Below are positions 5,564 through 64,000 of a stretch of 64,000 bases of DNA, in pieces. The DNA is from Polyangiales bacterium. GTDB taxonomy: Bacteria; Myxococcota_A; Polyangia; Polyangiales; Houyiibacteriaceae. Position 1 is the stretch's first letter. The number at the start of each line of letters is the position of its first letter. Both the position numbers and the translations under genes were made by a program. The DNA lies in the NCBI GenBank assembly GCA_045106895.1, contig JBGCFM010000100.1:32001-96000 (forward strand), given 5' to 3'. Below the pieces are notes generated by a model. The model had not been told where the DNA came from. It did not search any database and saw only the letters and a program-made list of their open reading frames with translations.

Positions 5564-5576
5564 GTACATGACCACC

Positions 5577-5765: not shown

Positions 5766-5828
5766 CCCCACCCAGTGACGCCCGCTCATTCCGCTCATTT
5801 TCTCACCCCGGCCCTTCGAAAGTCAACG

Positions 5829-7460: not shown

Positions 7461-7668
7461 GTAGGTTCACCAGCCCGATGGCCTCCGTCCGACGCGATGC
7501 GTTGACGGGGGCCTTTGTCGTTTCGTGAGCGGAGCACGAGCCGCCCTTTTCTGCCCAGATCTACCGACGATCTTCGACATTCGTCGGACTCGTGTGCCAA
7601 GCCCGTCACGGCTCCGTGGTTCGCGTTGACATGCACTCCCTCTGGCGCCTAGGTTCTGCCAGCCTCAC

Positions 7669-35730: not shown

Positions 35731-35780
35731 ACGCAAAGAGAAGCGGATGTGTCAGTGCCGTTTGCTATAGCGTGGGCGAG

Positions 35781-37010
35781 ATGTTCCGCGCGCTTCACAC
35801 CTCAGACTGGCACCTCGGGCACATGCTCCGAAACCGTTTCGATCGCGCCGCGGAACATGACGCGTTCTTGGCGTGGCTCCTCGAACAAATAGCGACGCAT
35901 GAGGCAGATGCCCTCCTCGTCGCCGGTGACATCTACCAAACGTCCAATCCACCAGCGCACGCCGAACAACGCTTCTACGACTTCTTAGCGCGTCTCCGCG
36001 GGGTCGCGCCGGATACCGACGTCGTGATCATCGCAGGCAACCACGACTCAGCGTCCCGGCTTCAGGCGGCACGTGGTCTCTACGGCGCGATCGGCGTCCA
36101 CGTCGTTGGCGCACTCCCCGTCGGCTCGGATCTTTCGGCCGCGGTGGTGCGCCTCGAAGGACGAACGGGGAGTGTCTGTGTGGCAGCGGTGCCTTTCCTG
36201 CGTCCGTCGGACCTCTCGCCGGAGCTCGTGCGCGAGGGCGGACTCGCCGCCGGCGTCGAGGAACGCTACAGGTCCACGCTGGAGCTCGCTCGAAGTAGAC
36301 GTCAAACAGATGACGCGCTCATCGTCATGGGCCACGGTCACTTGCTAGGCGGCCACACCAGCGAGCACTCCGAACGCGACCTGGTGCGGGGCAACGAAGA
36401 CGCGCTCCCGCTGACGATCTTTGGTGATGACTTTAGCTACGCGGCGCTCGGACACCTCCACCTCGCGCAGAGCGTCGAGGGAGGTCCCGCACCAGTGCGC
36501 TATTGCGGCTCCCCCATCCCGCTCTCGATGGGCGAAGCCTCCTATCCGCACCAAGTCTTGCGGGTCGACTTTGAGGGTCGAGATGTGTCTCAGATCGTCC
36601 CGCTCCTCATTCCCCGCGCCGTAGAGTTGGTGCGCATTGGTGCCGGCGACGCGAAGCCCCTCGATGAGACCCTCCAAACGTTACGCGAGTATGACTTCGG
36701 CGAACTTCGACAGCCGGCTTTTCAACCGATGCTTGAAGTCAGTGTGTTCATCGACGCCCCCACGCCAGACCTCAACGAGCAGGTCCACGCCGCCATCGCC
36801 GAGCGAGGCGTGCGCCTCGTTCGTATTCACCCGGTGCGAGCGGCCTCTATGGAGACTCGCCTCGGAGACACCCTCGTCGAAACGGACCTAAGCGACCTCG
36901 ACCCAGAACACGTGCTCATCGAGATGCACCGTCTCCGACACGACTCGCCGCCGCGTGACGAACTTCTCCGCGCGTTCCGTGAGCTACGTGCAGAAGTCGA
37001 GGCGCGTTAG
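35781..37010 (+). CDS. sbcD: exonuclease SbcCD subunit D
   Basis: HTSDWHLG, AGD, AGNHD, LGHLH and YCGSP motifs. Confidence 0.95.
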   Translation: MFRALHTSDWHLGHMLRNRFDRAAEHDAFLAWLLEQIATHEADALLVAGDIYQTSNPPAHAEQRFYDFLARLRGVAPDTDVVIIAGNHDSASRLQAARGLYGAIGVHVVGALPVGSDLSAAVVRLEGRTGSVCVAAVPFLRPSDLSPELVREGGLAAGVEERYRSTLELARSRRQTDDALIVMGHGHLLGGHTSEHSERDLVRGNEDALPLTIFGDDFSYAALGHLHLAQSVEGGPAPVRYCGSPIPLSMGEASYPHQVLRVDFEGRDVSQIVPLLIPRAVELVRIGAGDAKPLDETLQTLREYDFGELRQPAFQPMLEVSVFIDAPTPDLNEQVHAAIAERGVRLVRIHPVRAASMETRLGDTLVETDLSDLDPEHVLIEMHRLRHDSPPRDELLRAFRELRAEVEAR

Positions 37011-49763: not shown

Positions 49764-50882
49764 TTAGAAGCCGAAGAACTCAAAGACGTCGGCGAGCTCT
49801 CGACGCACTTCGTCTTCCGTCACGCCAAACTCTTCCAAGCTGTACTTGTGCTTGCTCTGGTACCGACGCTGTTTTCGTGTCGCTTCGTTCAGGCGCGCTT
49901 GGTACGGCTCGCTCATTGGCAAGGACATCCAGTCGTAGAGGCCTTCGACGACGGCGCGAGGGTCGGAAACGAGGTCGGGATAGCGAACGACGCGAATACG
50001 CTCTTCCGGCAGGTCGCGGACAAGGGCTGCCCCGGCGCGATAGTACGCGTATCCCATATCGATCATTTCTCGGGACGCGTTCGTTGCTTTGCCTAGCTCC
50101 GGCGAATGAGTCTGCCATTTCGCGTGGTACATGCTGGCAAACGACGGCAACGCCTCGAAGGGGTGACGCAGCAAGTAGACGAAACGTGCGTCGGGAAAAC
50201 GCGAGAGCATCGAGCGAACACGCGGCGCGAAGAACACGTTCTTGTTCAGGAAACGTTTGTTACCTCCCACGGAGTACAGATGCTTCTTCACCGTCGCTTC
50301 GTAGAAGTCCATGAAGGCTTCGCGGTCCGCTTCGGGATGCGAATCAAGCCACGTCAGGCGCGTGTAGTTGCGCATGAAAGGGTTGAGTAAGGACAGCGAA
50401 GGTGACTCAAAGCAGTAGACGAAAGTCGTCTCGTCTTCCTCTTCTTTGTCGATGCCCATCGCGTGGATCCCGTCCCACGCGTTGTTGTCGAAGAAGGTCT
50501 TGTTGATCGTCTTCACGCCCTGCTTCCACAGAGGAGCCAGGCGCCCTTCGCCGAGGGCTGCGATGGAACGCTGAATGGACACCGCGCTAAACATCGATTG
50601 GTGGAGTTTGAAGCCTGCGAAGTTCTCTTCATCGAGGCCCATCAAACGATGAAGCATCGTGGTTCCGCTTCGACCGTTCGCGAAGATGAAGACGGGTTGC
50701 TCGACCTTTTGCTCGGCCCAATCCGGAAACGCAAAGTCGTCTACTTTGCGCGCCCCTTCGAGGAGAGTGCGCATTCCCACGAGTCCAGCGGCGTACCCTC
50801 CCCAAGTGAGGGCCCGCCTCGGGGTGAAATTCGCCGCGGCGCTGGTCAACATCTCCGAGAACACTTTTTGATTCACGTACAT
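49764..50882 (-). CDS. PAPS-dependent sulfotransferase
   Basis: 5'-PSB GRSGTTML and 3'-PB LLRHP..ALPS motifs. Confidence 0.85.
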   Translation of the reverse strand: MYVNQKVFSEMLTSAAANFTPRRALTWGGYAAGLVGMRTLLEGARKVDDFAFPDWAEQKVEQPVFIFANGRSGTTMLHRLMGLDEENFAGFKLHQSMFSAVSIQRSIAALGEGRLAPLWKQGVKTINKTFFDNNAWDGIHAMGIDKEEEDETTFVYCFESPSLSLLNPFMRNYTRLTWLDSHPEADREAFMDFYEATVKKHLYSVGGNKRFLNKNVFFAPRVRSMLSRFPDARFVYLLRHPFEALPSFASMYHAKWQTHSPELGKATNASREMIDMGYAYYRAGAALVRDLPEERIRVVRYPDLVSDPRAVVEGLYDWMSLPMSEPYQARLNEATRKQRRYQSKHKYSLEEFGVTEDEVRRELADVFEFFGF

Positions 50883-50948
50883 GGGGTGTCCTCAACCTGT
50901 CCCGCGTCGAGGGGGGCCGCAACCCCGCGGGCGTGCTATCGCTGCCCT

Positions 50949-52229
50949 ATGAAATACGGGTCCTTGTTTCTTGCGTGTGCCGTCGTCGTTGGATGTGGCG
51001 ACGACGACGTTCTGCCAATCCTCGATGCCGGAGCCATCGATGCCGCCAGTCCTGACGTCGGCAACGACGCGGGGAACGACACGGGCCCCGACCCCGACGC
51101 AGGTCCCGTTTGCGAAGCCGGCGAGGTGCCCCTCGGGCGCGGCGAACACTCCATGATCTACGACACGCGCCGCGACCGCCTGGTCGCCTTCGGCGGCACC
51201 GTGGCCTTCCCCGAGATGTGTATGCCGCGCTACGAGTACACCGACGAAATCTGGCTCTTCGATCCAGTCTGCCAAACCTGGACACAGGACACTCCTTCGA
51301 TTGGAGGCCCCGGACGCCGCGCGCGCCAGGCCATGGTGCACGACGCAGCCGGTGACCGTGCCATCGCGTTCGGGGGCCGGACGTACGAAGGCGGCTTCTC
51401 CTTCCGAATTCGCGCCGACATTCATGTCCTCGACCTGGAGACCTTGGCATGGACTGAGCTCATCCCAGCGAACGAAACGCTTCCACCTCGCTCCCACGCC
51501 GCGATGGCCTTCGACGAAACCGGCAATCGTCTCGTCGTGTTCGGCGGCAACCTTGGAGGCGGCGTCTTTAGCCCGGAACTCACCAACGACACGTGGGAGT
51601 ACGACCTGACGACGAACGAGTGGACGGAGCTGACGCCGGCGGAGTCGCCGGGCGCCCGCTACGGCCATGCCTTCACGCAAGTCGGTCGAAAAATGTACGT
51701 GTACGGCGGATCCGGACCCATGGGCAGCTTCGTGAACGACGTGTGGGAGTTCGATCTGGACACGAACGAGTGGACGGGCGTGCGCGGTGGTGGACCCGAC
51801 TCGCCGCCAAGTCGCTTCGGCGCGGCCCTCTTCGACGATGGTGCCGGCGGTCTCCTCATGGCTCTCGGACACGACGCGACGGACCTCGGAAACGTCAACG
51901 ATCTTTGGCACCTCAATCTGGCCACCAACGCTTGGACGGAGCTTCGCCACGGAGATGTACTGAGCGGAGTGGCGAACGGCATCTGCGACTTCCCCGCGGA
52001 CTTCACGACGCCGGACCTCGAGGGTCCTGAGCGCCGCAACTTCCAGGGCTACGCCGCCGGTGGGGGCCATGCCTTCATCAGCTTCGGCAAGACGGACTGC
52101 GGTAACGCCAACGACATGTGGACAATTGATCTCGCTGCGCCGGACTTTGCCCTCGCCGGACCCGCCACAACGAGCGGCGAAGCCTGCAATCGCTCTGGCC
52201 GCGAGGACTGCACCTCGCTCTGCTTCTGA
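50949..52229 (+). CDS. Kelch-repeat beta-propeller lipoprotein
   Basis: VVGC lipobox; repeated R..H..., FGG, NDxW and W motifs. Confidence 0.85.
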   Translation: MKYGSLFLACAVVVGCGDDDVLPILDAGAIDAASPDVGNDAGNDTGPDPDAGPVCEAGEVPLGRGEHSMIYDTRRDRLVAFGGTVAFPEMCMPRYEYTDEIWLFDPVCQTWTQDTPSIGGPGRRARQAMVHDAAGDRAIAFGGRTYEGGFSFRIRADIHVLDLETLAWTELIPANETLPPRSHAAMAFDETGNRLVVFGGNLGGGVFSPELTNDTWEYDLTTNEWTELTPAESPGARYGHAFTQVGRKMYVYGGSGPMGSFVNDVWEFDLDTNEWTGVRGGGPDSPPSRFGAALFDDGAGGLLMALGHDATDLGNVNDLWHLNLATNAWTELRHGDVLSGVANGICDFPADFTTPDLEGPERRNFQGYAAGGGHAFISFGKTDCGNANDMWTIDLAAPDFALAGPATTSGEACNRSGREDCTSLCF

Positions 52230-52356
52230 GCAGAGGCGGAGGTCTGGAGTAGCCGCGGCGATTGGCCAAAACGGGTCCAAACTAGACTTTTTTGACCATT
52301 TCCCCTATTGTGACAGTTGTGTGACACGGCTTTGGGCCCTAAAACACACGTGATTC

Positions 52357-54012
52357 ATGTCCGCCCCACGCCAAGAGCGCCGCAAACGAGAGCGGCATGT
52401 CACTCATCAGAGGGCGTCCGCGGTTCCACCACCTCCAGGGCCTCCACAGCCACGCAAGGCCAAGAAGGCGGCGAAGACCGTCGCCCGCCCCCAGGTTGCC
52501 GCCGACGATGGCATCCTGGCGGACGTTCTTGAACCTACCACCTCGCTCCTCGACGAAGACGAGTGGTCTTTTCGCGAGCCCAAGTGGCGTATCCACGACC
52601 GAACCCATCTCGAGTTCGCCGTGGACTACGAAATCCCCAAGGAACAGAAGAAGGAAACCTACGTCTGGGAGGCGTACTTCTTCATTCCTCGCAGCTTGAA
52701 GGTCAACAGCGACACCTTTGAAAAGCGGCACATCTACCGCGACCTGCAGTCCTACGTGCGCCTCGCCCTCCCGGCGATGCCCCTCGCCGAAGTGGCGGAG
52801 CTTCCCAAGAGCCGAATACAAGCGGCGCTTGCGGACAACACCCTTGGTATTCAGGAACTTCGCCTCTTCGCTTGTCAGCTCCGGCGGTCCGCGTCGGAGG
52901 CTCTTCGCACGATTCGAAAAGACATCGAGCGAGGAGACCTGGACGAACTTGAGCCAACCTGCACATCCTTTGCCGTGCTCCTCCGCGACTTGCTCGCGGC
53001 CTTTCGCGAAGTGATTCCCTCCGCCGTCCACGAAGAGACTCGCATCACCGCGAGCTGGATCGACGAAGACTGTTCACGCATTGTCGAGTCAACGCTGGGG
53101 CAACTCAGTATCCTTCTACGCCGCAGCGGTCACGAGAGACTCGCCGCCACCGTCGCCGGCGGCGCCGTGGAGGAGGCCGTCTATCGGCGAGACAATGACG
53201 TGGGCAGCGTCGGATATGGGGACTCCGACAAACGCGACGTCGAACACCTGGAGTTTCGTCGCCACCTCCTCAAACGATTCAGCGCGTCCGTGCTGTGGCT
53301 GCACCGCGAAGTTTCCGAAGCGGGCAAGTGGACGCTCCAGGCGCTCTACGCCATCGCCGCCAGCGTCGCGATGGCCTTCACCGTCGGTGCCGCCTTCTAC
53401 CACGGCACGCCCGACGCGAACGCATTCAATAATCTCTGGAAGTGGGCGACGATCGTCATCCTGGCGTACGCAGGAAAGGACCGCATCAAGGCGACGCTTC
53501 AGGGCGTGTTTACGAAGTGGGTCCACAAGTGGATGCCAGACCGGCGCTGGCGACTCGAAGACCGGCTCAAGCGCATCACCGTTGGAACGGTCCGCGAACG
53601 CTCGGAGTTCCTCAAGAAGAAGGACATTCCAAACGCGGTTCACACCGCCCGTGTCAGTACACATCAGCACCGCCTCGAAGAACAAGCGCGGCCCGAGCAT
53701 GTCCTGTGGCACAAGAAGGACTGCGCCGTGAATGCCGAAGCAGTTCGCGGCATGGACGAGCGCTACGGCGCCATCACGGAGATCTTTCGCCTCAACCTCC
53801 GTGAGTGGCTTGTTCATACGGACAACGCCAAGCAGCGCGCCGTCTTCGCAGACCCGGATGACCAGCACATCTACACGGCGATGGCGCCACGAGTTTACAA
53901 CATCGCCGTGGTCTACCGTCTCCGCTCGTCCACCGATGACGCCGCACCTTGGCGCCGCGTTCGCGTGATTATCTCACGCAAAGGCATCAAACGAATCGAG
54001 CGCGTTCTGTAG
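52357..54012 (+). CDS. hypothetical membrane protein (two TMs)
   Basis: 551-aa ORF with IHD...EF, YFFIP.SL and AY..KDRIK motifs; function unknown. Confidence 0.7.
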   Translation: MSAPRQERRKRERHVTHQRASAVPPPPGPPQPRKAKKAAKTVARPQVAADDGILADVLEPTTSLLDEDEWSFREPKWRIHDRTHLEFAVDYEIPKEQKKETYVWEAYFFIPRSLKVNSDTFEKRHIYRDLQSYVRLALPAMPLAEVAELPKSRIQAALADNTLGIQELRLFACQLRRSASEALRTIRKDIERGDLDELEPTCTSFAVLLRDLLAAFREVIPSAVHEETRITASWIDEDCSRIVESTLGQLSILLRRSGHERLAATVAGGAVEEAVYRRDNDVGSVGYGDSDKRDVEHLEFRRHLLKRFSASVLWLHREVSEAGKWTLQALYAIAASVAMAFTVGAAFYHGTPDANAFNNLWKWATIVILAYAGKDRIKATLQGVFTKWVHKWMPDRRWRLEDRLKRITVGTVRERSEFLKKKDIPNAVHTARVSTHQHRLEEQARPEHVLWHKKDCAVNAEAVRGMDERYGAITEIFRLNLREWLVHTDNAKQRAVFADPDDQHIYTAMAPRVYNIAVVYRLRSSTDDAAPWRRVRVIISRKGIKRIERVL

Positions 54013-56017
54013 TCTGTGTCGCTGTGCTGGTCGCACTCGCGCGTGTCTCGCTCATCGCCAGCGCCCAGAGCGGGAAGTAACGACGATAGAGGCGGTAGTC
54101 CAAGAGGGCCGTTCGGAAGAACACGCCGGTCATCATTGGCGCCGCCCAGTCACCATTCTCGGCCTGCAGAGAGCGCAACGCGCTGGCGGCGGATTCAAAG
54201 GACGAGGCGAAGGCTTGTCCACCTTCGACGAGCGTCATCGCTGCCCAAGCTGTTTGTGTTGGATGAGACGCGTCACCTTCGATGTAGCGATCTTCAAGAC
54301 AGCTGCGCCACGACTCACTGAAGGAGCCGTCGTCACGCTGCTTCGCCGCGACAAAGGAACATGCCTTTTGAATCGCGGGGTCGTCTGGGGTCGCACCCGC
54401 TGCGACCAGACCGCGTACGCCGAAGAGCGTCCCGTAGAGGTAGGCCACGCCCCAAGCTCCGTCCCAGCTTCCGTCGGCGTTTTGTGAGGCACGTAGGTAC
54501 TTCTCCGCACGCTCGATGGCTGCGTCGATGTTCGCGCGCATCATCGCTGGGTAACGACTACGAACCGCAGCGAGGGCCGCCAGGTTCGAAGCCGTGCACT
54601 CGAAGTAGGACAGCTCCGTCATCGAGTCGCCGAACATCTCCGCGGGATTCATCCACTCAAGCCCGGCGCGGACCTTTCGCGACTCATAGGAACCAAAACC
54701 TCCGTCGAAATTCTGCGCCTGCAAAAGGAAGCGTACTCCGGCTTCGATGCGCTGTGGCTTCGGCGTGTATAGCTCCTTCGGCGCTTCGAGGAACGCAAGG
54801 AGCGCCTCTGCCGTGCAGTCGCTGACAGGCCAGCCGTGCCAAATGCCGGCGAAGCAGAAGCCGCCTGTGGGGTCGACGCGATCTTGAGCCGCGTACGCGC
54901 TCACGTCCCCGCCGCTCGGCTTCATGATCTGTTGCGTCTCAAGCCACGCGAGGCCGCGAAGGAGGGCTTCGTCGACGTCGCGTCGTGCGTTTCCTTGCAG
55001 GTTCGCGCGCGCTTCGGAAAGCGCCTGCAGAGCGAATGAGGTGTCCCAGGTCGCGCTACGAGCACCGGTGACACGAAGACCTTCTTCGTCGTCTTCCCAG
55101 ACCCACCCTTTGACCGCCGCGTCGTCTTCAACGTCGCCGCCAAAACGGGCGAGCTGCGCGTGGAGGTCCGAGTCGTTTGGATCCATCGCGTGAAGTGTGA
55201 GCGCAAAGAGCAGCCCATTCACCGGCGAGAGACACGTGTAGTCTGTGCTTCGAAGCTCAAAACGAATGCGTTTGACGAAGCGCTTGAGGAGCCAGCCACG
55301 AAGGCGCGGTGAGTGGAGCCGTTCCGCGACGTTGACCGCCGCGTACACTCCCTTGAGTATCGTGCCCGGCGGCGCCCAGAGATCATTCTCGCGAAGCCGG
55401 CCTCGCGACCCCTGGAAATCTAAGGTCTCGAAACGCCGCCCTGGATAGAGTTCACTCCGCAACTCGTGGGTGAGGTTCGTGATCGGCGCCTGGACCTTCA
55501 GCGAACGAACGCTGGCCATGCCCATGTAGATCAAGCGCGTGTGGCAGTAGTAGTTCGCCGGGTGCAAAGGCACCTTCTCCGGCAGGAGCCAGGCTTCTGG
55601 AGGGACCGCGTTGACGCCTTCCCAGCGGTAGAGGCCTGCGATGGAGAGCCACACCTTGCCCCAGCTCGGGATCGTCAAGGTGTCCTCTCGCTCGAAGAAC
55701 TGCCGGGCGCCAGAGAGCAATGGGTCTGACGCGTCCAGACCGCTCATTCGCGCGGCGACATAGCAGAGCGCGGTCACGAAGAGCGATGCTTCTCCGTGAC
55801 GGTGCATGCCCCAGCAGCCGCTGCCGTCCTCAAGCTGCATCGCCGCCAGCTGCGTGATGAGCCCTGTCCTACGTCGCGGCGGAATCTCCCGTCCCATCGC
55901 ATGCATCGCGATGACATATTGCGCCGCGAGCATGGGATTCCACACCACTTCGCCTTCCCAGTGTTCTCCTTCGTTTCGCAACGAAACAAGGTGAAGGGCC
56001 GCGGTATGAAGCGTCAT
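53987..56017 (-). CDS. osc: 2,3-oxidosqualene cyclase
   Basis: VSDCTAE catalytic motif (not DXDD), YYCHTR, WGK.WL and QW repeats (QNADGSW, QAENGDW). Confidence 0.95.
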   Translation of the reverse strand: MTLHTAALHLVSLRNEGEHWEGEVVWNPMLAAQYVIAMHAMGREIPPRRRTGLITQLAAMQLEDGSGCWGMHRHGEASLFVTALCYVAARMSGLDASDPLLSGARQFFEREDTLTIPSWGKVWLSIAGLYRWEGVNAVPPEAWLLPEKVPLHPANYYCHTRLIYMGMASVRSLKVQAPITNLTHELRSELYPGRRFETLDFQGSRGRLRENDLWAPPGTILKGVYAAVNVAERLHSPRLRGWLLKRFVKRIRFELRSTDYTCLSPVNGLLFALTLHAMDPNDSDLHAQLARFGGDVEDDAAVKGWVWEDDEEGLRVTGARSATWDTSFALQALSEARANLQGNARRDVDEALLRGLAWLETQQIMKPSGGDVSAYAAQDRVDPTGGFCFAGIWHGWPVSDCTAEALLAFLEAPKELYTPKPQRIEAGVRFLLQAQNFDGGFGSYESRKVRAGLEWMNPAEMFGDSMTELSYFECTASNLAALAAVRSRYPAMMRANIDAAIERAEKYLRASQNADGSWDGAWGVAYLYGTLFGVRGLVAAGATPDDPAIQKACSFVAAKQRDDGSFSESWRSCLEDRYIEGDASHPTQTAWAAMTLVEGGQAFASSFESAASALRSLQAENGDWAAPMMTGVFFRTALLDYRLYRRYFPLWALAMSETRASATSTATQTTERARFV

Positions 56018-57331
56018 CTAAACGGCCTTTTGGCGAGCCGTGGTGAGCAACTCTCGAGCGACGTCCAGTTTGACCTGGCCGGCGTCGACAAGCTGTGCCG
56101 CGATGAGGTCCACCTCGTGGTGTTCCGCACCGGCGGCGAGCGCAACGCTGCGTGCGTGGAGCGTCATATGGCCTCGTTGAATGCCTTCAGTCGCCAACGC
56201 GCGAAGCGCACCCATGTTCTGTGCGAGACCCACCGTGGCCATGACCATTCCAAGCTCCGCGGCGGAACCTACGTCGAGGATCTTTCGCAAAACACGAATC
56301 GTTGGGTGCACTTGAGTGCTTCCGCCAACGACACCGACGGCCATGGGCAGCTCGATGCTCCCCATGAGGTAACCATCTTCGCGCCACCACTTGGTGAGAG
56401 AAGTGTAGCGGCCGTCACGAGCGGCGTACGCGTGCGCGCCCGCTTCAACACTTCGCCAGTCGTTGCCCGTGGCAATGGCCACAGCATCGATGCCGTTCAT
56501 CACGCCCTTGTTGTGTGTCGCCGCACGATAAGGGTCGACTGCCGCAAATCGGTATGCCTGCACGATGCCCTCGGCCACCTCGGCGCCGGAGTAGCCGTTG
56601 CCCGCCAAGTGAATCTCTGGAACGCGACAGGAGGCGCGCGCACAGCGGCGGTCCGCCAGGTTCGAGAGGATGCGCAAGTTCACGCGCCCCTTCGTCAGCT
56701 CTTCAATGCGACCCGCAACGCCTTCGGCCATCGCGTTGACCGCGTTGGCGCCCATCGCTTCGCCGCAGTCGACGAGGAGATGAACGACGAGCATTGGGAA
56801 CTCGTCATCGAAGCGCCGGACCTCGATGTCACGTGCACCGCCGCCGCGCTTCTTCATGTTCGGATGAACACGGTCAGCGAGAGTAAGCAGCTCTTCCTTC
56901 GCGTCCTCCAAAGCCTTCACAGCGGCATCGACGTCGGGAAGGTCGAGGACCTGGACCTGACCGATCATCATCGATGGATCGGCAGAACCCGTGAATCCGC
57001 CGGCTTTGCGAACGGTCCGCGCCATGTTCGAGACCGCCGCGACAACACTCGGCTCCTCGACGACCATCGGAATGACGTAGTCACGTCCGTTGAGGTGGAA
57101 GTTCAGACCGAGTCCAATGGGGAGTCCGAAGACGCCCACACAGTTCTCAACCATCTTGTCCGCGCGGCCCACGCCAAGACGTCCACCGTCGCGGAGGACG
57201 TCGAGGTCTTCGCTGGTGAGACCGAAGCGCTTACCGAGTTCGGCGTGACGCTCGCCCACTTCGAGGCGGTAGAAACCGGGGATTCGCGACTCACGTCGCC
57301 GACTGGAGGAGTTGATCGTTTCTTCGGTCAT
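56018..57331 (-). CDS. mvaA: HMG-CoA reductase, class II
   Basis: MVEN, EEPSVVAA, EAMGAN, ILSNL, YRAATHNKG and GIQRGHM motifs. Confidence 0.95.
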   Translation of the reverse strand: MTEETINSSSRRRESRIPGFYRLEVGERHAELGKRFGLTSEDLDVLRDGGRLGVGRADKMVENCVGVFGLPIGLGLNFHLNGRDYVIPMVVEEPSVVAAVSNMARTVRKAGGFTGSADPSMMIGQVQVLDLPDVDAAVKALEDAKEELLTLADRVHPNMKKRGGGARDIEVRRFDDEFPMLVVHLLVDCGEAMGANAVNAMAEGVAGRIEELTKGRVNLRILSNLADRRCARASCRVPEIHLAGNGYSGAEVAEGIVQAYRFAAVDPYRAATHNKGVMNGIDAVAIATGNDWRSVEAGAHAYAARDGRYTSLTKWWREDGYLMGSIELPMAVGVVGGSTQVHPTIRVLRKILDVGSAAELGMVMATVGLAQNMGALRALATEGIQRGHMTLHARSVALAAGAEHHEVDLIAAQLVDAGQVKLDVARELLTTARQKAV

Positions 57332-58476
57332 GCCGACACCTGGTCTTCCGTGGACTTTTTGGGCTTCGAGCTGAGCTTCGTGAGCCCTTTTTCGTCGAGG
57401 TATTCCTGCCATTTACGAATCGTCAGATCTTGGAAAGACCGAACGACGGGGTTGATCTCTGCGAGGGGTTCGTCCCAGAAACGCTCCCAACCCCTTTGTT
57501 CTTCCTCAACAGCGACAGCATCTTCACCAAGGAGTGGTTTGATGGTCAGTTCATTGGCGATTTGCATGAAAGGACGCATCAACGCCTTCGGGATTCGCGC
57601 GGAAGTGAAAGGAACCTTGAAGCTCTTGAAGCAGAAAAGGAAGAACGCGCGTGATGTGCGTTCGTCGATGGGCAGCACGAAGAGCCAATGCTTGATCTGG
57701 TCGTCCGTGTTCGAGAACTGGTAGGGGTACTGGTAACCGAGCTTCATGCTGCTCGTGTCGATGGACTTCCGGTCGATGAAGAGACCGCTGAAGCGGCCCG
57801 TTCCAACCTTCGTGTCGTACTCAAGATGTACCGTGTCCCCGACGGTCTCGTAGCTGAGGAGTTCCGCGTCGGTGAAGGGACGGAAACGTCGATGCAGATA
57901 GGCGTGGGTAAAGTCGCTCACGTTGTCGAGAATCATCGAGTGGTGTGCTTGCCAGGTGGCATCCACGGGAACGCAGGTCCAAGCGTCCGGTCCCTCGAGC
58001 TCTGGAATGCTCGGCATCGGTACGCTTTCTGCGCGCTCCGCGTCACCGAAGAACACCCAAATCAGCCCGTACTTCAGCTTCACCGGCAGGTGAGGAACCT
58101 TGAACTTGGGAAACTTCCGCCCGAAGAGCGAGTGCGGAATGTCTACAACGCGCCCTTCCCCATCGTAGGTCCAGCCATGGTAGGGACAGACAAGGTTGCA
58201 TCCATCGACATGCCCCGTGGAGAGCCGCAGCTGGCGGTGAGCGCAGCGATTTTCGATGGCACGAACGACGTCATCTTCGCCGCGAAAGACAGCGATGGAG
58301 CGCTTCCAAAACACCACCTCTTTGACTTCGCCCTTGGGCAGAGCCTTCTCGTACTCAACGGCGTACCAGTAGTTTGGGTTCATCCCCGCGGAGCGGACCT
58401 TTTGGCGAACGTTCTTTGACTCCTCAAAGGACGGCGGAGGCGTAGCGGATCGAACGTAGGGGTTTCGCTTGCTCAT
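57328..58476 (-). CDS. Rieske non-heme iron oxygenase, probable sterol C-4 methyl oxidase (SdmA-like)
   Basis: CAH...CPYHGW Rieske motif and DNVSDFTHAYLH iron site; SdmA identity inferred from context. Confidence 0.75.
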   Translation of the reverse strand: MSKRNPYVRSATPPPSFEESKNVRQKVRSAGMNPNYWYAVEYEKALPKGEVKEVVFWKRSIAVFRGEDDVVRAIENRCAHRQLRLSTGHVDGCNLVCPYHGWTYDGEGRVVDIPHSLFGRKFPKFKVPHLPVKLKYGLIWVFFGDAERAESVPMPSIPELEGPDAWTCVPVDATWQAHHSMILDNVSDFTHAYLHRRFRPFTDAELLSYETVGDTVHLEYDTKVGTGRFSGLFIDRKSIDTSSMKLGYQYPYQFSNTDDQIKHWLFVLPIDERTSRAFFLFCFKSFKVPFTSARIPKALMRPFMQIANELTIKPLLGEDAVAVEEEQRGWERFWDEPLAEINPVVRSFQDLTIRKWQEYLDEKGLTKLSSKPKKSTEDQVSA

Positions 58477-58487
58477 GACGGGTGTTC

Positions 58488-59588
58488 CTAAGCGTGAATC
58501 GTTACGTGAGGGACGCTCGCCGATGGCGAGTTCGTCGGCTGTGGTGCACGTGCGTTCTTGTTCGTGATGCCGCCTCGACCCCAGTGGAACGCGTAGGCGT
58601 CGGCGAAGGCGTCTTCAATGGAGCCCGGAACGAACCCGAGCTCGTTCTTCGCTTTGGAGGTGTCCGCGTGACGCATCAGACGCAGGCGGCGGATCGCCCC
58701 AGGTGTGAGCAGCTGTGGCGCCTTGGGTCGGAAGCGCGTCATGAAGAAGCTCGTCGCTTCGGCGATGGGAAGCATCAACTGGTTCGGTACGCGGAAGCGC
58801 GGGCGAGGCTGACCGGTGATCTTCTCGAAGATCGCGAAGATGTCGTCGAGCGTCATGAACTTCGTCGCGATGATGTACTTCTGACCCGAGCGTCCCTTGT
58901 CGAGGGCCAGCAGGTGACCTTGAACGAGGTCCTTCGCGGCCACGAACTCGAAGCCGCCATTGACGTAGGCGTTCAACTCCCCGTTGGCGAAACGACAGAG
59001 CGTCCGACCCATGCGGGAAGGCAAGTAGTCATGGCCACCCACCACGGCGCAGCTCGTCACGATGAGAGCGTCCTGTCCTTCAGCGACGGCCTTCAAGACT
59101 TCGTGCTCCTGGAGCACCTTGCTGCGCTCGTAGGGCATCGCGCGGTGGTAGGGGTAGAAACCCATGGACTCGTCCGCCGGGAGGTCCGTCTGGTCGAGGT
59201 CGTATCCAACGGCGGAGAATGACCCCGTCACGATGGTCCGGCGCACGTTGTTCTCGCGTGCGATGCGCAGCAAGTGACGGGTGCCGATCACGTTCGTCTC
59301 GTAGATGGTGCGCCGATGCGCAGCGTCTCCATCAATAGTGGAGACCATCGATGCGACGTGAATGATGTCCCGGACACCCTTGATAGCAGGCGTGAGCGTG
59401 GAGGGGTCGCGAAGGTCGCCGTACGCTTCTTCAACGGGCAATGAACGGATGGCTTCGTTGTTCTCTCCGCGGCGCAGAAGAACGCGAACGCGCTTTCCTT
59501 CTTCGACAAGCTGGTGGACGACGTTCGCACCGACGTGGCCGGCGCCACCTGTCACGAGAATCGGAGCATCTTTTTGGGGTTGGGTCAT
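58488..59588 (-). CDS. extended SDR (3beta-HSD/decarboxylase-like), probable SdmB
   Basis: TGGAGHVG and YERSK motifs; adjacent to the Rieske gene inside the sterol operon. Confidence 0.75.
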   Translation of the reverse strand: MTQPQKDAPILVTGGAGHVGANVVHQLVEEGKRVRVLLRRGENNEAIRSLPVEEAYGDLRDPSTLTPAIKGVRDIIHVASMVSTIDGDAAHRRTIYETNVIGTRHLLRIARENNVRRTIVTGSFSAVGYDLDQTDLPADESMGFYPYHRAMPYERSKVLQEHEVLKAVAEGQDALIVTSCAVVGGHDYLPSRMGRTLCRFANGELNAYVNGGFEFVAAKDLVQGHLLALDKGRSGQKYIIATKFMTLDDIFAIFEKITGQPRPRFRVPNQLMLPIAEATSFFMTRFRPKAPQLLTPGAIRRLRLMRHADTSKAKNELGFVPGSIEDAFADAYAFHWGRGGITNKNARAPQPTNSPSASVPHVTIHA

Positions 59589-59603
59589 AGTCTTCTCTCA
59601 GGC

Positions 59604-62600
59604 TCAGTTCGCGCTCGCGCTGCGCACTTGTTCTTGCGCAGGCAGTTTCCATAGCTGGTCGTAGTGCGCACGAAGCGCAGCGTCGTCTCCGACGCGCGCC
59701 ATGCACTCACCGATAAGTCGTTCCACTTCTTCTCGGGCAATCTTCACCGGCGCGCCGGCGACGAACATAGCGTCGTTGCCCCGCCCGTGTACGAGTGTCC
59801 GAACGGCCATCCAAAGTGGCAGCAAGCAGAACAGCCGCACGGACGTCTGCTCTTTCGGAATCGTCAGCGTGTATTCAAGGGCGCGGTCGAGGTGCTCTTG
59901 TGCTCGGTCAAAGAGGGGTGCGACGGCGGCGTGGGCCGCGTCTCTCTTGTTCTCGTCGACGAGGTTCTGAATCGTCAGTCCGGCGGCTGCACAGGAAGTG
60001 CGGGGCACGTAAGAGACGTGCCGTGTTCGGTCGTCGGTCACATCTTTGAGAATGTTGACGAGCTGAAGACCGAGTCCAAACGCTTCTGCGTTCTTCCGCA
60101 GGTCGAGTTCCAACGACGCGCTCTCCCGCCCGAACTCTTCAACGAAGAGGTCCGTCAACATGTGACCGACGGTACCCGCGACGAAGAAGCAGTAACGCTC
60201 AAGGTCTTCAACGGTATGCATCGCGTTGAACCCATCGGCTTCGTTGCCGCGATGCGAGTAAAGCTGCATGCCCCGAACCATCTCTTCAATCCAGCGGGTG
60301 GCCTTGCGCTGCATCTCGCTTGGGATGGACCGATAGACACGCATCACGACGGAGAGATGGCGCGCCAAATCGGCTTCCGTTTCGTCGCCGCGGACCCCTT
60401 CGAAGAGGCGCTCGAAGCGTTTGACTTCGGCGCTCTCGGGCGATGCCTGCAGAGCGCTGAGGAACACGTGGTAGCGCTCGTCGCGTTCACTCATGGTGAA
60501 GAACGCGTTGTCTTCGATGGTGTCGGCGATACGGCAGAGAAGGTAACCGCACATTACTGCGGAGCGAAGGTCTCCAGGGAGCATCTCAATGGGGCGCGCG
60601 AAGCTTCGTGAGACCGCCAGGAGCGCGTCGTGGCAGTAAGCGTGGTCTGCGGCACTGGCGCGCCCTGCTCTCTGCTTTCCAGGAGCCTGAAGACGCGAAG
60701 TGCGCATGTCGCGGTAAAGCCGAAGCGCCTCACCAGCCAACTCGTCCAGTGAGTCTTCGCTAGAAAGCGACACAAGACACGCCGCGGCGGCGTCGACGTA
60801 GGGCGCGCCGGTTCGCAAAATGGCGCGGGCAACAAGAGTGGTCGTCCGCAAGTCACCGATGCGACCGGTGTCTTGCTGAGCGGCGGCCACGTGCCGAAAG
60901 GCACGGCGAATGCGCGGATGAAAGACCGGCATGCCTGCCGTGACAAGGCATTCGGCGGCGAGAGCTGTTCGTCGTAGATCTCCGAAAGACCCGCTCGCCT
61001 CTTGCTCGCGTTCGAGGCGCTCGCGCAAAGGAATCAGCGCCGACTGCAAGAGACTGGCGCGAAGTCCGGGGAGTTCGGTCGCGACCTCGGCGAGAACGAG
61101 GACGCTCTTGCTCGTTGCTTGGAGGTCGAGGTCAGCCTTCGAGGCAACCTGCGCTGCGACGCGGCGGGCGACACTCTGCGCGAGCGCAACCGTTTCGCCG
61201 AGCGCGGGCCCTCCAATGGAGCGCCGAAGTCGCGTCTCTTCGTCCAGCGCATCACTCGACTCACGCACTCGCGCGATGAGAGCGTCTACATCGACGTCGA
61301 CGGATGCAGGCGCCGGGGCGCGTCCTCGTTCCGGCGCAGCGGGGCGGATTCGAAGGCCCGCAAGGGGATGCGCCGCGGAGCTCTTGTCACGAACGCGTTG
61401 GCGCAACGCCGTGGGCAAAAGGCTCGCCGCCGGCCACTGCGCGAACTCCATGAAGGTGCCGAGTTTGTGGGCTTTCCCGGAAGTGATCTGCCCGGCAGCG
61501 GCGCCCGCCGCCACGCGCACAAACGCAGCGCCAAACTGACCGAGTCGAAGCTCGTCGCCGCCGAGGATGCGCATCGTTCGGTCTCGCTCGGCGCGGCTAT
61601 TTCGCCACGTCGAGTACATCGAGTCGCGGATGGCCACGGCGGCCTCGTCGTCGCGATTAAAGACGTGGTGGAGCGCGTTTGCGAGTAGCTCCGGCGTGTA
61701 GCTGCGGGGCTCACGCTTGGCCGCGTAGCTCGCGGCGTCGTCACTCTCAACGAGGGCGGCGGCGTCCTTGAGCCCGATGGTGATCCCGCTGGCGGTCAGC
61801 GGATGGTAAAAGCCCACGGCGTCACCAACGAGAGCGACGTGTCCTTCTCCGTACGCCGCGCGCGGCGAGAAGCGATTGCACGCCCAGATGAGGCGCTGGG
61901 TCTCAAGAGCGCGCCTGAATGCGCCGCGAAGAGAGACAGGGAAGCGATCGCCGAAGGCTTCCCAGAGGTAGCGCGCGTCCCGCCGTGAACCCGGGTAGTC
62001 GACGGGCACGTCGATGCAGGCGCGTACTCGCCCTGGAGCGATGCGGTAAAGAAGAACCGGACCGGGACCGCCGAGCAACACATGGCCGAACCCCTCGAAG
62101 GGAAGTTCAACGTCCTCGAGCTCAAGCCCCGCCATGTAGGAGACGATGTCGGCGTTGGTGGGTCCGTAGAGGCTCTTGCGAACAACGGACGAGCGACCGT
62201 CAGCACCGACGATGCGCCCCGCATGTACCACGGTCTCGGCCTCACCCTTGCGCTGAAGCGTCACGTTGTGACCCTCAATCTTGGTGACTCGGACCCCTTC
62301 GATGTACTCGAGGCCAGGAATCTCACTCGCCTGTGCGCGTAGACCCGTGACCAGCTCCCCATGCTCACACGTGAAGCCGAGCTGGCGATCCGTATACTCA
62401 AGACGAATTGGATCCGTGCCATCGTCCGGGAACACCGCGAACCCCTCACACGCCAGGTGACCTGCCGTGATGCCGTGGGGAGTCAGCTCAAGTTTCGCCA
62501 GGGCGGCGGCGCCTGCGGGGTGAATCCACTCACCAGCGAAGCGAAAGGACGCTTTGGGATTGGCCTCAACCAGGAGAACGCTCAGGCCGCGTCGGGCAAA

Positions 62601-62672
62601 ACCAGCGGCCGCAGCGACACCAGCAGGGCCGGCTCCGGCGACGAGGACATCGTAGTGTTGGGACGTGCTCAT
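59604..62672 (-). CDS. squalene epoxidase - squalene synthase fusion protein
   Basis: N-terminal GAGPAG, GEWIHPAG, GADG and GDA...HPLTASG; C-terminal VSRSF, RIADTIED, YCFFVAGTVG and LQLVNILKD. Confidence 0.88.
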   Translation of the reverse strand: MSTSQHYDVLVAGAGPAGVAAAAGFARRGLSVLLVEANPKASFRFAGEWIHPAGAAALAKLELTPHGITAGHLACEGFAVFPDDGTDPIRLEYTDRQLGFTCEHGELVTGLRAQASEIPGLEYIEGVRVTKIEGHNVTLQRKGEAETVVHAGRIVGADGRSSVVRKSLYGPTNADIVSYMAGLELEDVELPFEGFGHVLLGGPGPVLLYRIAPGRVRACIDVPVDYPGSRRDARYLWEAFGDRFPVSLRGAFRRALETQRLIWACNRFSPRAAYGEGHVALVGDAVGFYHPLTASGITIGLKDAAALVESDDAASYAAKREPRSYTPELLANALHHVFNRDDEAAVAIRDSMYSTWRNSRAERDRTMRILGGDELRLGQFGAAFVRVAAGAAAGQITSGKAHKLGTFMEFAQWPAASLLPTALRQRVRDKSSAAHPLAGLRIRPAAPERGRAPAPASVDVDVDALIARVRESSDALDEETRLRRSIGGPALGETVALAQSVARRVAAQVASKADLDLQATSKSVLVLAEVATELPGLRASLLQSALIPLRERLEREQEASGSFGDLRRTALAAECLVTAGMPVFHPRIRRAFRHVAAAQQDTGRIGDLRTTTLVARAILRTGAPYVDAAAACLVSLSSEDSLDELAGEALRLYRDMRTSRLQAPGKQRAGRASAADHAYCHDALLAVSRSFARPIEMLPGDLRSAVMCGYLLCRIADTIEDNAFFTMSERDERYHVFLSALQASPESAEVKRFERLFEGVRGDETEADLARHLSVVMRVYRSIPSEMQRKATRWIEEMVRGMQLYSHRGNEADGFNAMHTVEDLERYCFFVAGTVGHMLTDLFVEEFGRESASLELDLRKNAEAFGLGLQLVNILKDVTDDRTRHVSYVPRTSCAAAGLTIQNLVDENKRDAAHAAVAPLFDRAQEHLDRALEYTLTIPKEQTSVRLFCLLPLWMAVRTLVHGRGNDAMFVAGAPVKIAREEVERLIGECMARVGDDAALRAHYDQLWKLPAQEQVRSASAN

Positions 62673-62775
62673 AGGGTAAATCGAGGGTGAGGGAGGGCCT
62701 TTGGCAAGGGCGCCAGAGGGGCTATTCCACGATTGCCTCGTAGCATTCGACCTCCCAAATGGAACGTGTTTCGGC

Positions 62776-62825
62776 TGAGCTGTGCTGTGGTACGGCTGAG
62801 CCGTTGTGCAGGATCGGTGAACCGT
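62776..62825. repeat. three TGARCYGT direct repeats at 21-bp period
   Basis: TGAGCTGT at 62776, TGAGCCGT at 62797 and TGAACCGT at 62818. Confidence 0.55.
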
Positions 62826-62931
62826 GTTCCAAAAACGGCACCCGGTTTCCCGTAATTCCTAATAGTTTCGTTACGTTATCGAAATACTGTGTTCGAAGCC
62901 GGGCCCTCTGGCGCACGATCGTGCTTAACGG

Positions 62932-62965
62932 AAAAAGGCCATTCCCGACTGGGAACGGCCTCTTC
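62932..62965 (-). terminator. rho-independent terminator of the OmpA-family gene
   Basis: Minus strand reads GAGGCCGTTCCC-AGTC-GGGAATGGCCTTTTT. Confidence 0.8.
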
Positions 62966-62984
62966 ACGTCAAAAAGGGGAGACG

Positions 62985-64000
62985 CTAGATCTCGGGGCGG
63001 TAGCGACGACCGGCCGGGCAACCCAGCTCAACGCCCGTTGGGCCATTCTCCGTGGAGATGATCTTGAACACAACGCGTCGGTTCTGCTCCCAGGCAGCTG
63101 CATTGCTTCGCTGATCAAGAGGGCAGACCTCGCCGTAGCCGGCGCTGATGAGCCGGTCCCGGGCAACGCCGCGCTGAACGAGGGCTTCCACAACGGATGC
63201 CGCACGGTCGCGGGTGAGGCGCAGGTTGTATTCGTCGGCTCCACGCTCATCTGCGTGGCCTTCAACCTCGATCTGCGTGATCTGTGGGTTGCCGTTGAGC
63301 GTCGCGGCGACGGCATCGACGATGGAGTAACTGACCTGTTGAATCACAGCGCTGTCGGTCTCGAAGAGGATCTTGTCGAGAATGATGATCTGGTCATCTT
63401 CGACGATGACGGTGCCGCGGTCGGGACAACCATCTTCATCTTCGAAGCCGTTGTACGACTCTGGGTCGACAGGACATGAGTCGTCACCATCCAAAATACG
63501 GTCGCCGTCATTGTCGGGGTCCGGACAACCGTCTTGGTCCTGGAAGTTGTCCACGTCCTCGGGGTCGTTTGGACAGAGGTCGTCGGTGTCGAGAATTCCG
63601 TCGTTGTCGTTGTCGGGATCGGGGCAACCGTCCTCGTCCTGGAACCCGTCACGGTCTTCAGGGTCGTCTGGACACTCGTCGACCTCGTCGAGGATGCCGT
63701 CACCGTCGCGGTCACCGCTGTTGCCTTCGGGACAGCCGTCTTCATCGGCGTCGCCATCACGGTCCTCGGGAACCAGCGGACACTCGTCGTCATCGTCGAG
63801 GATGCCGTCACGGTCATTGTCGGGATCCGGACAGCCGTCTTCGTCGGCGAAGTTGTCGAAGTCCTCGGGCTCGTCAGGACACTGGTCCACGTCGTCCTTG
63901 TAGCCGTCGCCATCGCGGTCGCCGATGCTCGGCTCGAAGATGAAGCCGGCCATCGCGCGGAAGTTGGCGGACTGGAATGCGTTGAAGGGAGGCAAGTTGC
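62985..64000 (-). CDS. 5'-truncated OmpA-family protein with thrombospondin type-3 repeats (TraB-like)
   Basis: Five DxDxDGxxDxxDxCP...DGCP units, then IEVEGHADERG, NLRLTRDRA and NRRV. Confidence 0.88.
   Translation of the reverse strand, partial: NLPPFNAFQSANFRAMAGFIFEPSIGDRDGDGYKDDVDQCPDEPEDFDNFADEDGCPDPDNDRDGILDDDDECPLVPEDRDGDADEDGCPEGNSGDRDGDGILDEVDECPDDPEDRDGFQDEDGCPDPDNDNDGILDTDDLCPNDPEDVDNFQDQDGCPDPDNDGDRILDGDDSCPVDPESYNGFEDEDGCPDRGTVIVEDDQIIILDKILFETDSAVIQQVSYSIVDAVAATLNGNPQITQIEVEGHADERGADEYNLRLTRDRAASVVEALVQRGVARDRLISAGYGEVCPLDQRSNAAAWEQNRRVVFKIISTENGPTGVELGCPAGRRYRPEI

Follow-up and report, generated by a model that had tools for sequence, protein, structure and literature searches.

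Introduction

Gene clusters for sterol biosynthesis are already established in bacteria. Methanotrophs remove one C-4 methyl group from their sterols by means of the Sdm system (PMC10202945). Cultured Sandaracinus amylolyticus, a member of the Sandaracinaceae, makes cholesterol, and its sterol gene cluster, which includes genes for isoprenoid precursors, was published in J Bacteriol in 2025 (PMC12004948). According to the same source, full C-4 demethylation relies on SdmAB alone in S. amylolyticus and Minicystis rosea. Here we describe a locus of this known kind, from a separate uncultured clade, in a stretch of 64,000 nucleotides (hereafter, the window) of the assembly GCA_045106895.1, labelled Polyangiales bacterium (contig JBGCFM010000100.1, positions 32,001 to 96,000). 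Positions 53987–62672 of the window very probably constitute a sterol-biosynthesis operon of an uncultured Polyangiales-like myxobacterium.

Organization of the Probable Sterol Operon

The operon is an 8.7-kb unit of five co-oriented open reading frames (ORFs) on the minus strand. They code, in the order of reading, for a fusion of squalene epoxidase (SE) with squalene synthase (SQS), an extended short-chain dehydrogenase/reductase (SDR), a Rieske oxygenase, a class II HMG-CoA reductase (HMGR) and an oxidosqualene cyclase (OSC) with a DCTAE motif. An earlier reading of the letters alone (the sequence-only reading) had proposed these five identities and gaps of 15, 11, −4 and 0 bp. The identities are borne out by Pfam and NCBIfam models, by matches to solved structures and by motifs, and the coordinates and junctions agree exactly. 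The sequence of the junctions shows 15 nt between the fusion and SDR genes, 11 nt between the SDR and Rieske genes, a 4-nt ATGA overlap between the Rieske and HMGR genes, and 0 nt between the HMGR and cyclase genes (TAGATG). The HMGR gene is counted from the ATG of the ATGA overlap; its longest ORF would begin upstream, at 57412.

All five frames are coding by composition, with GC contents of 0.71–0.77 at the third codon position and of 0.40–0.50 at the second. No terminator-like site was found at the operon junctions: the five such sites predicted in 53500–63200 all lie within the span of the fusion gene, compared with 8.9 ± 3.2 expected from shuffled sequences. Co-orientation, minimal or overlapping spacers and junctions free of terminators are the marks of a single transcription unit, and the spacings imply that the five genes are probably read as one transcript with translational coupling.

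Oxidosqualene Cyclase

The cyclase scores 629.4 bits with the subfamily model TIGR03463 versus 207.5 bits with the squalene-hopene cyclase (SHC) model TIGR01507, and it exceeds the cut-off of the general OSC model TIGR01787 (437.8 versus 322.7 bits). Its closest solved relative is human lanosterol synthase (1w6k, E = 1.6e-106), as against 1e-45 for the SHC 1gsz. The segment PVSDCTAE at residues 397–404, with DCTAE at 400, aligns with VSDCTAE of the human enzyme, and squalene-hopene cyclases carry DxDD. The sequence-only reading had asked whether the protein clusters with squalene-hopene cyclases; both comparisons place it with the oxidosqualene cyclases. It is also the only triterpene cyclase found in the genome, which has a single match to PF13243, and the genome is therefore taken to have no SHC.

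At the position of human V453 the window cyclase has Val, as do the cyclases of all Sandaracinaceae-type loci, and the proteins of Cystobacter fuscus (L064) and Archangium (L047) have Ile. The Sandaracinaceae-type loci compared here and below come from metagenome-assembled genomes (MAGs) labelled Sandaracinaceae, and not from S. amylolyticus DNA. In the bacteria tested by Wei et al. in 2016, V453 was associated with lanosterol and I453 with cycloartenol (PMC4919349). The active-site motif GIWHGWPVSDCTAE is identical in the Sandaracinaceae loci L036 and L076. Judged by these residues, the product of the window cyclase is most likely lanosterol.

It is very improbable that the cyclase instead yields a non-sterol triterpenol, of the arborinol type or another penta- or tetracyclic kind, and that the locus is a triterpenoid cluster. 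A few findings nevertheless point in that direction and weigh against the assignment to sterols. The score lies below the cut-off of TIGR03463 (629.4 versus 851 bits), and the cyclase domains of the Sandaracinaceae-type proteins also stay below it, with 669–701 bits over the C-terminal ~640 residues. At the positions of human T381 and C449 the cyclase has Ala and His, a pair that agrees with neither of the residue sets given for lanosterol and cycloartenol in PMC4919349. Arborane synthases are also known among bacterial homologues of OSC, with Eudoraea adriatica as an example (PMC7306690). These points are opposed by the Val at 453 and the active-site stretch shared with the Sandaracinaceae cyclases, by the SdmA- and SdmB-like genes in the same operon, and by a CYP51 and two delta-14-type sterol reductases in the genome, enzymes that act on sterol nuclei.

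The Squalene Epoxidase–Squalene Synthase Fusion

The first gene is predicted to join both enzymatic activities that precede cyclization, with a third domain between them. The N-terminal SE domain matches PF08491 (88.7 bits, cut-off 20.1) as well as PF01494, and carries the FAD fingerprint GAGPAG at residue 13. Among solved structures, the one nearest to it by sequence is that of human squalene monooxygenase (6c6n, E = 2.4e-29); Foldseek aligns the SE part to the same structure with E = 2.3e-20 and a TM-score of 0.81 on the target.

The C-terminal domain is of the one-step, eukaryote-type SQS class. It matches PF00494 (SQS_PSY) with 148.2 bits, above the cut-off of 26, and its best NCBIfam model is TIGR01559 (116.6 bits), followed by HpnD (67.9), HpnC (53.1) and CrtB (48). 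The solved relatives rank in a similar way, with SQS 7wgh (E = 1e-19) and human SQS 3vj8 (3.9e-15) ahead of CrtM (1e-8) and HpnC (6e-4). Two Asp-rich motifs are present, DTIED at 717 and DVTDD at 877, of which D717, T718, E720, D721, D877, T879 and D881 are invariant across 40 aligned fusions. Less favourable to the assignment is the equivalog cut-off of TIGR01559, which at 286.75 bits is well above the score of the domain. The maximal Kyte-Doolittle hydropathy of the whole protein over 19-residue windows is 1.42. The usual threshold for a transmembrane segment is ~1.6, and on this measure the fusion appears to lack a transmembrane anchor.

The linker between the two domains is predicted to be all-helical. 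The AlphaFold2 model of the whole protein, built from a 40-sequence alignment, has a pLDDT of 89.4 and a pTM of 0.81; the linker attains a pLDDT of 86.1 when folded alone, and more than 90 over most of residues ~490–650 in the whole-protein model. Compared by VIA-align with 48,161 chains, the linker fold is most similar to human OSC 1w6k (Z 15.5, rmsd 3.1, 199 aligned), followed by SHC 1gsz (Z 13.6), ent-copalyl diphosphate synthase (12.8) and an Archangium SHC-like protein (12.7), values to be read with the caveat that helical repeats can attain Z ~13 by their arrangement alone. A Foldseek search of the PDB with the linker alone returned no match at E ≤ 0.001, and the weaker rows beyond this limit were all alpha/alpha-toroid proteins. 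The linker of the window protein has no Pfam match, and the longer linkers of two relatives exceed the SQHop_cyclase_C cut-off of 26.1 (C. fuscus L064, 34.3 bits; L030, 36.6 bits). Repeated Q-x-x-D-G-S-F/W units run through the linker in the alignment of fusions. The confidently predicted all-helical fold, together with the sequence support from relatives, points to a terpene-cyclase-like alpha/alpha-toroid as the third domain of the fusion. Because the window linker carries only degenerate QW-like repeats (QEASGSF, QQDTGRI) and no DCTAE motif, the toroid is taken to be non-catalytic.

The fusion is widespread in Myxococcota. A search gave 175 homologous proteins at E ≤ 0.001, and PF00494 and PF08491 occur together in 120 of 120 among the matches listed. 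The homologues include proteins of cultured C. fuscus and S. amylolyticus (in the latter P0076, 1143 residues), whose annotation goes no further than 'squalene/phytoene synthase family protein' or 'FAD-dependent oxidoreductase'. In the literature text searched we found no mention of a natural SE/SQS fusion, of the toroid domain or of this gene order, although the gene-context figures of PMC7306690 (Fig. 5) and PMC12004948 (Fig. 2a) may draw the fusion. The words 'fusion' and 'fused' were not found in this sense in the main texts of PMC8237579, PMC10202945, PMC12004948, PMC10152446, PMC4919349, PMC7306690 and PMC12324236.

The Putative C-4 Demethylation Pair

The second and third genes form an adjacent pair, with the SDR gene upstream of the Rieske gene. 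The best NCBIfam model of the SDR is NF052578 (SdmB, 288.6 bits), and the protein matches PF01370 and PF01073 (3Beta_HSD). Its NAD(P)-binding motif GGAGHVG at 14 and its catalytic motif YERSK (YxxxK) at 153 are intact. The oxygenase, composed of Rieske and VanA_C domains, is best matched by NF052579 (4beta-methylsterol monooxygenase) with 419.6 bits, and the next family reaches only 40 bits. The Rieske ligands CAH...CPYH (CxH...CxxH) are found at residue 78 and the mononuclear iron site DFTHAYLH at 188. Neither protein attains its equivalog cut-off, which is 600 bits in both models, and for this reason the two genes are designated SdmA-like and SdmB-like and not filed as equivalog members.

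These low scores also leave some room for a different role, in which the Rieske oxygenase and the SDR perform other triterpenoid tailoring, such as hydroxylation or the interconversion of 3-keto and 3-hydroxy groups, or in which the SDR acts in the manner of HpnA. The hopanoid-associated HpnA is indeed the second-best model of the SDR, with 238.9 bits, and the SdmA and SdmB of Enhygromyxa salina alone removed no methyl group and needed a third protein, SdmC (PMC10202945). We consider such a role improbable. The distance between the SdmA model and the next family is large, the two genes are adjacent like known SdmAB, and homologues with identities of 60–63% and 47–52% reside in the Sandaracinaceae sterol clusters; in cultured S. 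amylolyticus, SdmAB is reported to serve full C-4 demethylation (PMC12004948). An HpnA-type function would moreover be without a substrate in a genome devoid of SHC.

Two further observations count against the overall reading. The operon contains no redox partner for the epoxidase or for the Rieske oxygenase, and a tblastn search of the window genome gave no close SdmB paralogue that could act as an SdmC (best identity 28%). Since E. salina requires SdmC, demethylation at C-4 could be partial or absent. The candidate outcomes for the window pair are thus the removal of one methyl group, as in methanotrophs, of both, as in Calothrix and S. amylolyticus, or of none unless a third protein takes part, as in E. 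salina.

HMG-CoA Reductase and Mevalonate Supply

The fourth gene codes for a class II enzyme (TIGR00532, 395.8 bits, cut-off 259.95; PF00368, 363.5 bits), with at most 40 bits in class I models. The window genome (G000) comprises 7.7 Mb in 288 contigs and is 96% complete with 2% contamination. In this genome the operon HMGR is the sole PF00368 match, and tblastn detects no paralogue. A search of the genome for DXR found none. HMG-CoA synthase is encoded on contig C262, and contig C285 carries a cluster of a prenyl diphosphate synthase, mevalonate kinase (216.8 bits), diphosphomevalonate decarboxylase (279.8 bits) and a phosphomevalonate-kinase-like gene, together with a divergent type 2 isopentenyl diphosphate isomerase (377 bits). 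The mevalonate pathway is thus complete in the genome. The sequence-only reading had credited the operon with mevalonate supply; the reductase is there, and the claim is too broad in that the synthase and the kinase and decarboxylase genes lie on other contigs.

Within the GTDB family of the window, the HMGR of the sterol cluster (63–94% identical) is usually an extra gene beside a copy of 49–55% identity, which is also carried by family genomes that have no sterol genes. Most family genomes with a sterol operon have two or three HMGR genes. Only the sterol-cluster type is found in the window genome and its congeners G027 and G028 (74% and 83% complete), which makes three of three genomes of the genus, and also in G023. 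It seems, provisionally, that a pathway-dedicated HMGR paralogue became the sole HMGR in the genus of the window. The reading is provisional because all three assemblies are fragmented, and the same caution applies to every 'only copy' statement on a 288-contig genome that is 96% complete.

The position of a sole HMGR inside a sterol operon raises the question of whether the five genes are merely adjacent, with the HMGR transcribed from a promoter of its own within the upstream gene. An internal promoter is conceivable because a sole copy, in a genome that lacks DXR, must serve housekeeping needs and supply all isoprenoids, and this counts against a simple operon. Fusion, SdmA and HMGR are colinear on a single contig in 15 family genomes, 12 of which keep a further HMGR (49–55% identical) elsewhere; this suggests that the operon copy was originally dedicated to the pathway. 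A separate HMGR unit is, however, unlikely: the overlap with the Rieske gene and the contact with the cyclase start leave no intergenic room, the junctions are free of terminator-like sites, and 14 of the 88 family genomes preserve the order SdmA-HMGR-OSC. An internal promoter would in any case supplement read-through transcription and not replace it.

Conservation of the Gene Order

The sequence-only reading had proposed a synteny survey across Myxococcota. A scan of one genome per species gave 555 confirmed stretches, and the best 80 loci were classed by tblastn with the five window proteins. The exact order fusion-SdmB-SdmA-HMGR-OSC occurs in 12 of these 80, and two truncated loci agree with it. 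The closest exact-order locus, L007 from a MAG labelled Polyangiales, is 91–94% identical to the window, and the other exact-order fusions are 53–59% identical. One locus has the order fusion-SdmB-HMGR-OSC, 13 have SE/SQS-HMGR-OSC, and 15 have SE/SQS-OSC with cyclases of 31–40% identity that are mostly of the Ile type. The Sandaracinaceae order HMGR-SdmB-(SdmA)-GGR-[SE-like::OSC]-fusion accounts for another 15, and an unfused order SQS-SdmB-SdmA-HMGR-SE-OSC for one (L086). The remaining 21 have SQS or the fusion only, or are broken by contig ends. The Rieske-less variant is seen in L019 and in G004 (contig C20), and G004 has no SdmA match anywhere at E ≤ 1e-40. In the unfused variant (L086:10001-20973), the SQS and SE genes lie 7 kb apart.

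The set of the GTDB family consists of 88 genomes in 18 genera, of which 48 match the fusion, 31 SdmA, 86 HMGR and 45 the cyclase. The four genes are colinear on one contig in 14 of the 88 genomes and in 8 of the 18 genera, the window genome counted; one of the 14, G023, has ~1.5 kb inserted before the cyclase. The family was searched with these four proteins, and the spacing of 1.1–1.4 kb between fusion and SdmA would fit an SdmB gene. G001, G019 and G027 are broken by contig ends yet consistent with the operon order, and G012 has a fusion fragment, SdmA and HMGR without a cyclase match. Because the order recurs in 12 of the 80 related loci and in 14 of the 88 family genomes, it is more than a chance arrangement. 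The suggestion of the sequence-only reading that the arrangement might be novel does not hold, since many public MAGs of Myxococcota share the identical order, the fusion occurs in cultured C. fuscus and S. amylolyticus, and the cluster of S. amylolyticus is in print (PMC12004948).

One genus of the family, g17, has a different organization. The fusion is matched in 20 of its 55 genomes, and in those with both halves assembled, SE and SQS occupy two neighbouring ORFs of their own, of ~470 and ~390 residues, without the toroid linker and followed by HMGR and the cyclase. In the example G047:C5:35229-40780, SE occupies 35229–36503 and SQS 36523–37581. The fusion looks like a later welding of neighbouring genes, of which g17 would represent the unfused precursor state. 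SdmA homologues of g17 (35–38% identical) are found on other contigs.

Later Sterol Genes Elsewhere in the Genome

The sequence-only reading was right that the window contains no CYP51 or sterol reductase gene; both kinds are present elsewhere in the genome. Of six cytochromes P450, one on contig C246 carries AGHHTS and FGGGKHKCTG, motifs that we take to be hallmarks of CYP51, and a C-terminal ferredoxin domain. Among solved structures it is closest to CYP51s (6mcw, E = 1e-153), and the match extends through residue 531. A 229-residue ORF without a Pfam or NCBIfam family (L102:12033-12722) begins 12 nt after this gene, and the other neighbours are unrelated to sterols. Two ERG4/ERG24 proteins are encoded, and both match the delta-14-sterol reductase 4quv best. 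One lies on contig C219; a contig break divides the gene of the other, with one part at the end of C228 (25444–25818) and the rest at the start of C51 (3–968). These two contigs probably join, because their ends share an identical stretch of ~47 residues. Directly downstream on C51 is a gene of the SIP/ferredoxin-reductase type (L104:996-1838), a possible redox partner. The genome also has nine FA_hydroxylase genes.

With a single cyclase and no SHC, the CYP51-ferredoxin fusion, two delta-14-type reductases, a complete mevalonate pathway and no DXR, the genome as a whole fits a sterol producer. The inventory has gaps that speak against a complete route. No EBP-type C-8 isomerase was found in the window genome. 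A search of the genome for the GGR family gave three candidates, on contigs C9, C205 and C225, none of which reaches the cut-off. The best of them is 29% identical to a Bsr-like protein, and an orthologue of the C-24 reductase Bsr was thus not detected. The end product is uncertain because neither the isomerase nor Bsr was found.

Boundaries and Flanking Genes

The operon is preceded by a 312-nt spacer and, beyond it, by an OmpA-family gene, from which it is separated by a terminator-like hairpin with a U-run (Table 1). The hairpin has a minimum free energy of −31.7 kcal/mol (z = −7.52), none of 200 shuffled sequences was equally stable, and the close relative L007 has preserved the stem. The spacer, the presumed promoter and leader region, shares 86% identity with its counterpart in L007, including long invariant blocks, and the last ~50 nt before the ATG are invariant, a comparison of two close sequences only. 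No Rfam match was obtained for 62600–63050 at E ≤ 1, and no sigma-70-like site was predicted in 53500–63200. A TGGAAC...TTCAC block in the leader was considered as a sigma-54 promoter and dropped, as it matches the consensus poorly by eye.

On the opposite side, a convergent gene overlaps the 3' end of the cyclase gene by 26 nt. In L010, L032 and L015, homologues of its product (53–62% identical) are encoded within ~1–3.5 kb on the downstream side of the cyclase. Three minus-strand ORFs in this region (53116–53868, 52339–53031 and 50892–52280) were rejected as shadow frames on account of their antisense-type GC pattern and the lack of Pfam or NCBIfam matches; the two plus-strand genes of Table 1 are taken as the genuine ones. 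A sulfotransferase-family gene (PF13469, 88 bits) lies at 49764–50882 on the minus strand, ~3 kb from the operon, and a link to sterol conjugation is conceivable; among the loci, a homologue is present in L019 only, partial and at a contig edge.

Table 1. Features of the sterol operon, its flanks and the CYP51 gene (window coordinates unless a contig is named)
Feature	Position	Strand	Remarks
Fusion gene	59604-62672	-	1022 aa, squalene epoxidase + squalene synthase
Squalene epoxidase domain, FAD-dependent	61356-62672	-	fusion residues 1-439; PF08491
All-helical linker domain, partial alpha/alpha-toroid (predicted)	60657-61355	-	fusion residues 440-672; predicted structure
One-step (eukaryote-type) squalene synthase domain	59604-60656	-	fusion residues 673-1022; PF00494
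SdmB-like extended SDR (sterol C-4 decarboxylase / 3-keto reductase type)	58488-59588	-	366 aa
SdmA-like Rieske non-haem-iron oxygenase (sterol C-4 methyl oxidase type)	57328-58476	-	382 aa
Class II HMG-CoA reductase	56018-57331	-	437 aa
Oxidosqualene cyclase, lanosterol-synthase type	53987-56017	-	676 aa, free-standing
Spacer, presumed promoter/leader region	62673-62984	-	312 nt; precedes fusion gene
Terminator-like hairpin + U-run	62925-62972	-	just past the upstream OmpA-family gene; folding energy
OmpA-family gene	62985-63995	-	upstream neighbour
Convergent neighbour gene	52357-54012	+	551 aa, no Pfam family, hydrophobic stretches
Kelch-repeat gene	50463-52229	+	further downstream of cyclase
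CYP51-ferredoxin fusion	G000:C246:15304-17019 (L102:10305-12020)		CYP51 relatives

Proposed Pathway and Implications

Gene order, domain-level families, intact catalytic motifs, the conservation of the order and the genome-wide inventory were observed directly, and from them we infer substrates and products. The HMGR would supply mevalonate, and the SQS domain would condense two molecules of farnesyl diphosphate to squalene. The SE domain, separated from SQS by the putatively non-catalytic toroid, would convert squalene to 2,3-oxidosqualene, which the cyclase is expected to turn into lanosterol. The CYP51-ferredoxin fusion and a delta-14 reductase, both encoded elsewhere in the genome, could then remove the C-14 methyl group, and the SdmA-like Rieske oxygenase and the SdmB-like SDR may oxidize and remove one or both C-4 methyl groups by the bacterial route. 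The enzymes of the whole genome would thus carry the product past lanosterol to sterols demethylated at C-14 and C-4. The succession from HMG-CoA reduction through squalene, epoxidation and cyclization to C-4 demethylation had been outlined by the sequence-only reading, and family scores, matches to solved structures, motifs and conserved synteny support it.

The architecture of the first gene allows a bolder proposal, which we advance tentatively and consider doubtful. The gene would code for a three-domain 'oxidosqualene synthase' that, as a single soluble or peripheral protein, takes farnesyl diphosphate to 2,3-oxidosqualene and does not release squalene on the way, and the pathway HMGR paralogue of the genus would have replaced the housekeeping copy. 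The toroid, catalytically inactive and derived from a cyclase, would then serve as a hydrophobic conduit, or as a module for docking to the membrane or to the cyclase. A physical assembly line of SQS, SE and OSC in Myxococcota is suggested by a Rosetta-stone argument, because an SE-like domain is fused to OSC in Sandaracinaceae, and SE and SQS are separate and adjacent in one genus of the family. If the proposal were true, all isoprenoid synthesis of these bacteria would depend on a sterol operon.

Among bacteria, Myxococcota have the deepest sterol pathways and those most like the eukaryotic ones, and it has been discussed whether eukaryotes obtained sterol synthesis from them. To this group the operon adds an uncultured lineage that combines the early pathway (HMGR, SQS, SE and OSC) and the putative bacterial C-4 demethylase pair in one compact unit. 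Such an 8.7-kb unit is a convenient cassette for heterologous expression, and it shows how the pathway may move between lineages. The additions to knowledge are the SE-toroid-SQS fusion and a sterol-dedicated HMGR that seems to have become the sole copy; they are modest, and neither overturns current understanding.

Comparison with Known Sterol Systems

The putative C-4 demethylation pair resembles SdmA and SdmB of Methylococcus capsulatus, with the variants SdmABC of E. salina and SdmAB of Calothrix sp. NIES-4105 (PMC10202945), in the adjacency of a Rieske oxygenase and an SDR, in the best-matching models and in the intact motifs. It differs in scores that stay below the equivalog cut-offs and in that no SdmC-like paralogue was found. 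The 21-kb cluster of Calothrix sp. NIES-4105 likewise unites oxidosqualene production, cyclization and SdmAB in one locus, and also has genes for C-14 demethylation and C-8 isomerization (PMC10202945). By contrast, the window genome carries CYP51 and the reductases on other contigs, and HMGR inside the operon.

The three catalytic modules have their closest solved relatives in human FDFT1, SQLE and LSS (3vj8, 6c6n and 1w6k), and the same chemistry is predicted for the modules. The eukaryotic squalene synthase, squalene monooxygenase and lanosterol synthase are separate proteins anchored in the endoplasmic reticulum. Compared with FDFT1 and SQLE, the synthase and epoxidase of the window form one polypeptide, with a toroid domain in addition and apparently no membrane anchor.

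The Sandaracinaceae MAG loci also hold HMGR, SdmB, in part SdmA, OSC and the fusion together, and their proteins are 37–63% identical to those of the window. They contain a Bsr-like GGR gene (15 loci, with the YxWxFP motif as YGWLFP), and their cyclase is fused to an SE-like FAD domain in one ORF of ~1130–1190 residues (L027:6444-9986, L076:7112-10621 and L078, ~5126-8527), and the window operon has neither. The Sandaracinaceae-type genomes carry two SE-type domains, and the two are fused to different neighbours in the pathway. The SE-like segment that precedes the cyclase was considered as the GGR-type C-24 reductase Bsr and rejected, as it belongs to the same ORF as the cyclase, and the GGR is a separate, preceding ORF.

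These loci match the published description of the S. amylolyticus cluster, including its GGR gene (PMC12004948). That cluster and the window operon are both myxobacterial and share committed sterol genes together with one or more isoprenoid-precursor genes, SdmAB, a lanosterol-type cyclase and the SE/SQS fusion. The order is HMGR-SdmB-(SdmA)-GGR-[SE-like::OSC]-[SE-toroid-SQS] in the Sandaracinaceae type and [SE-toroid-SQS]-SdmB-SdmA-HMGR-OSC in the window. The window operon thus differs from the S. amylolyticus type in its lack of Bsr, in the order of its genes and in a cyclase that stands free.

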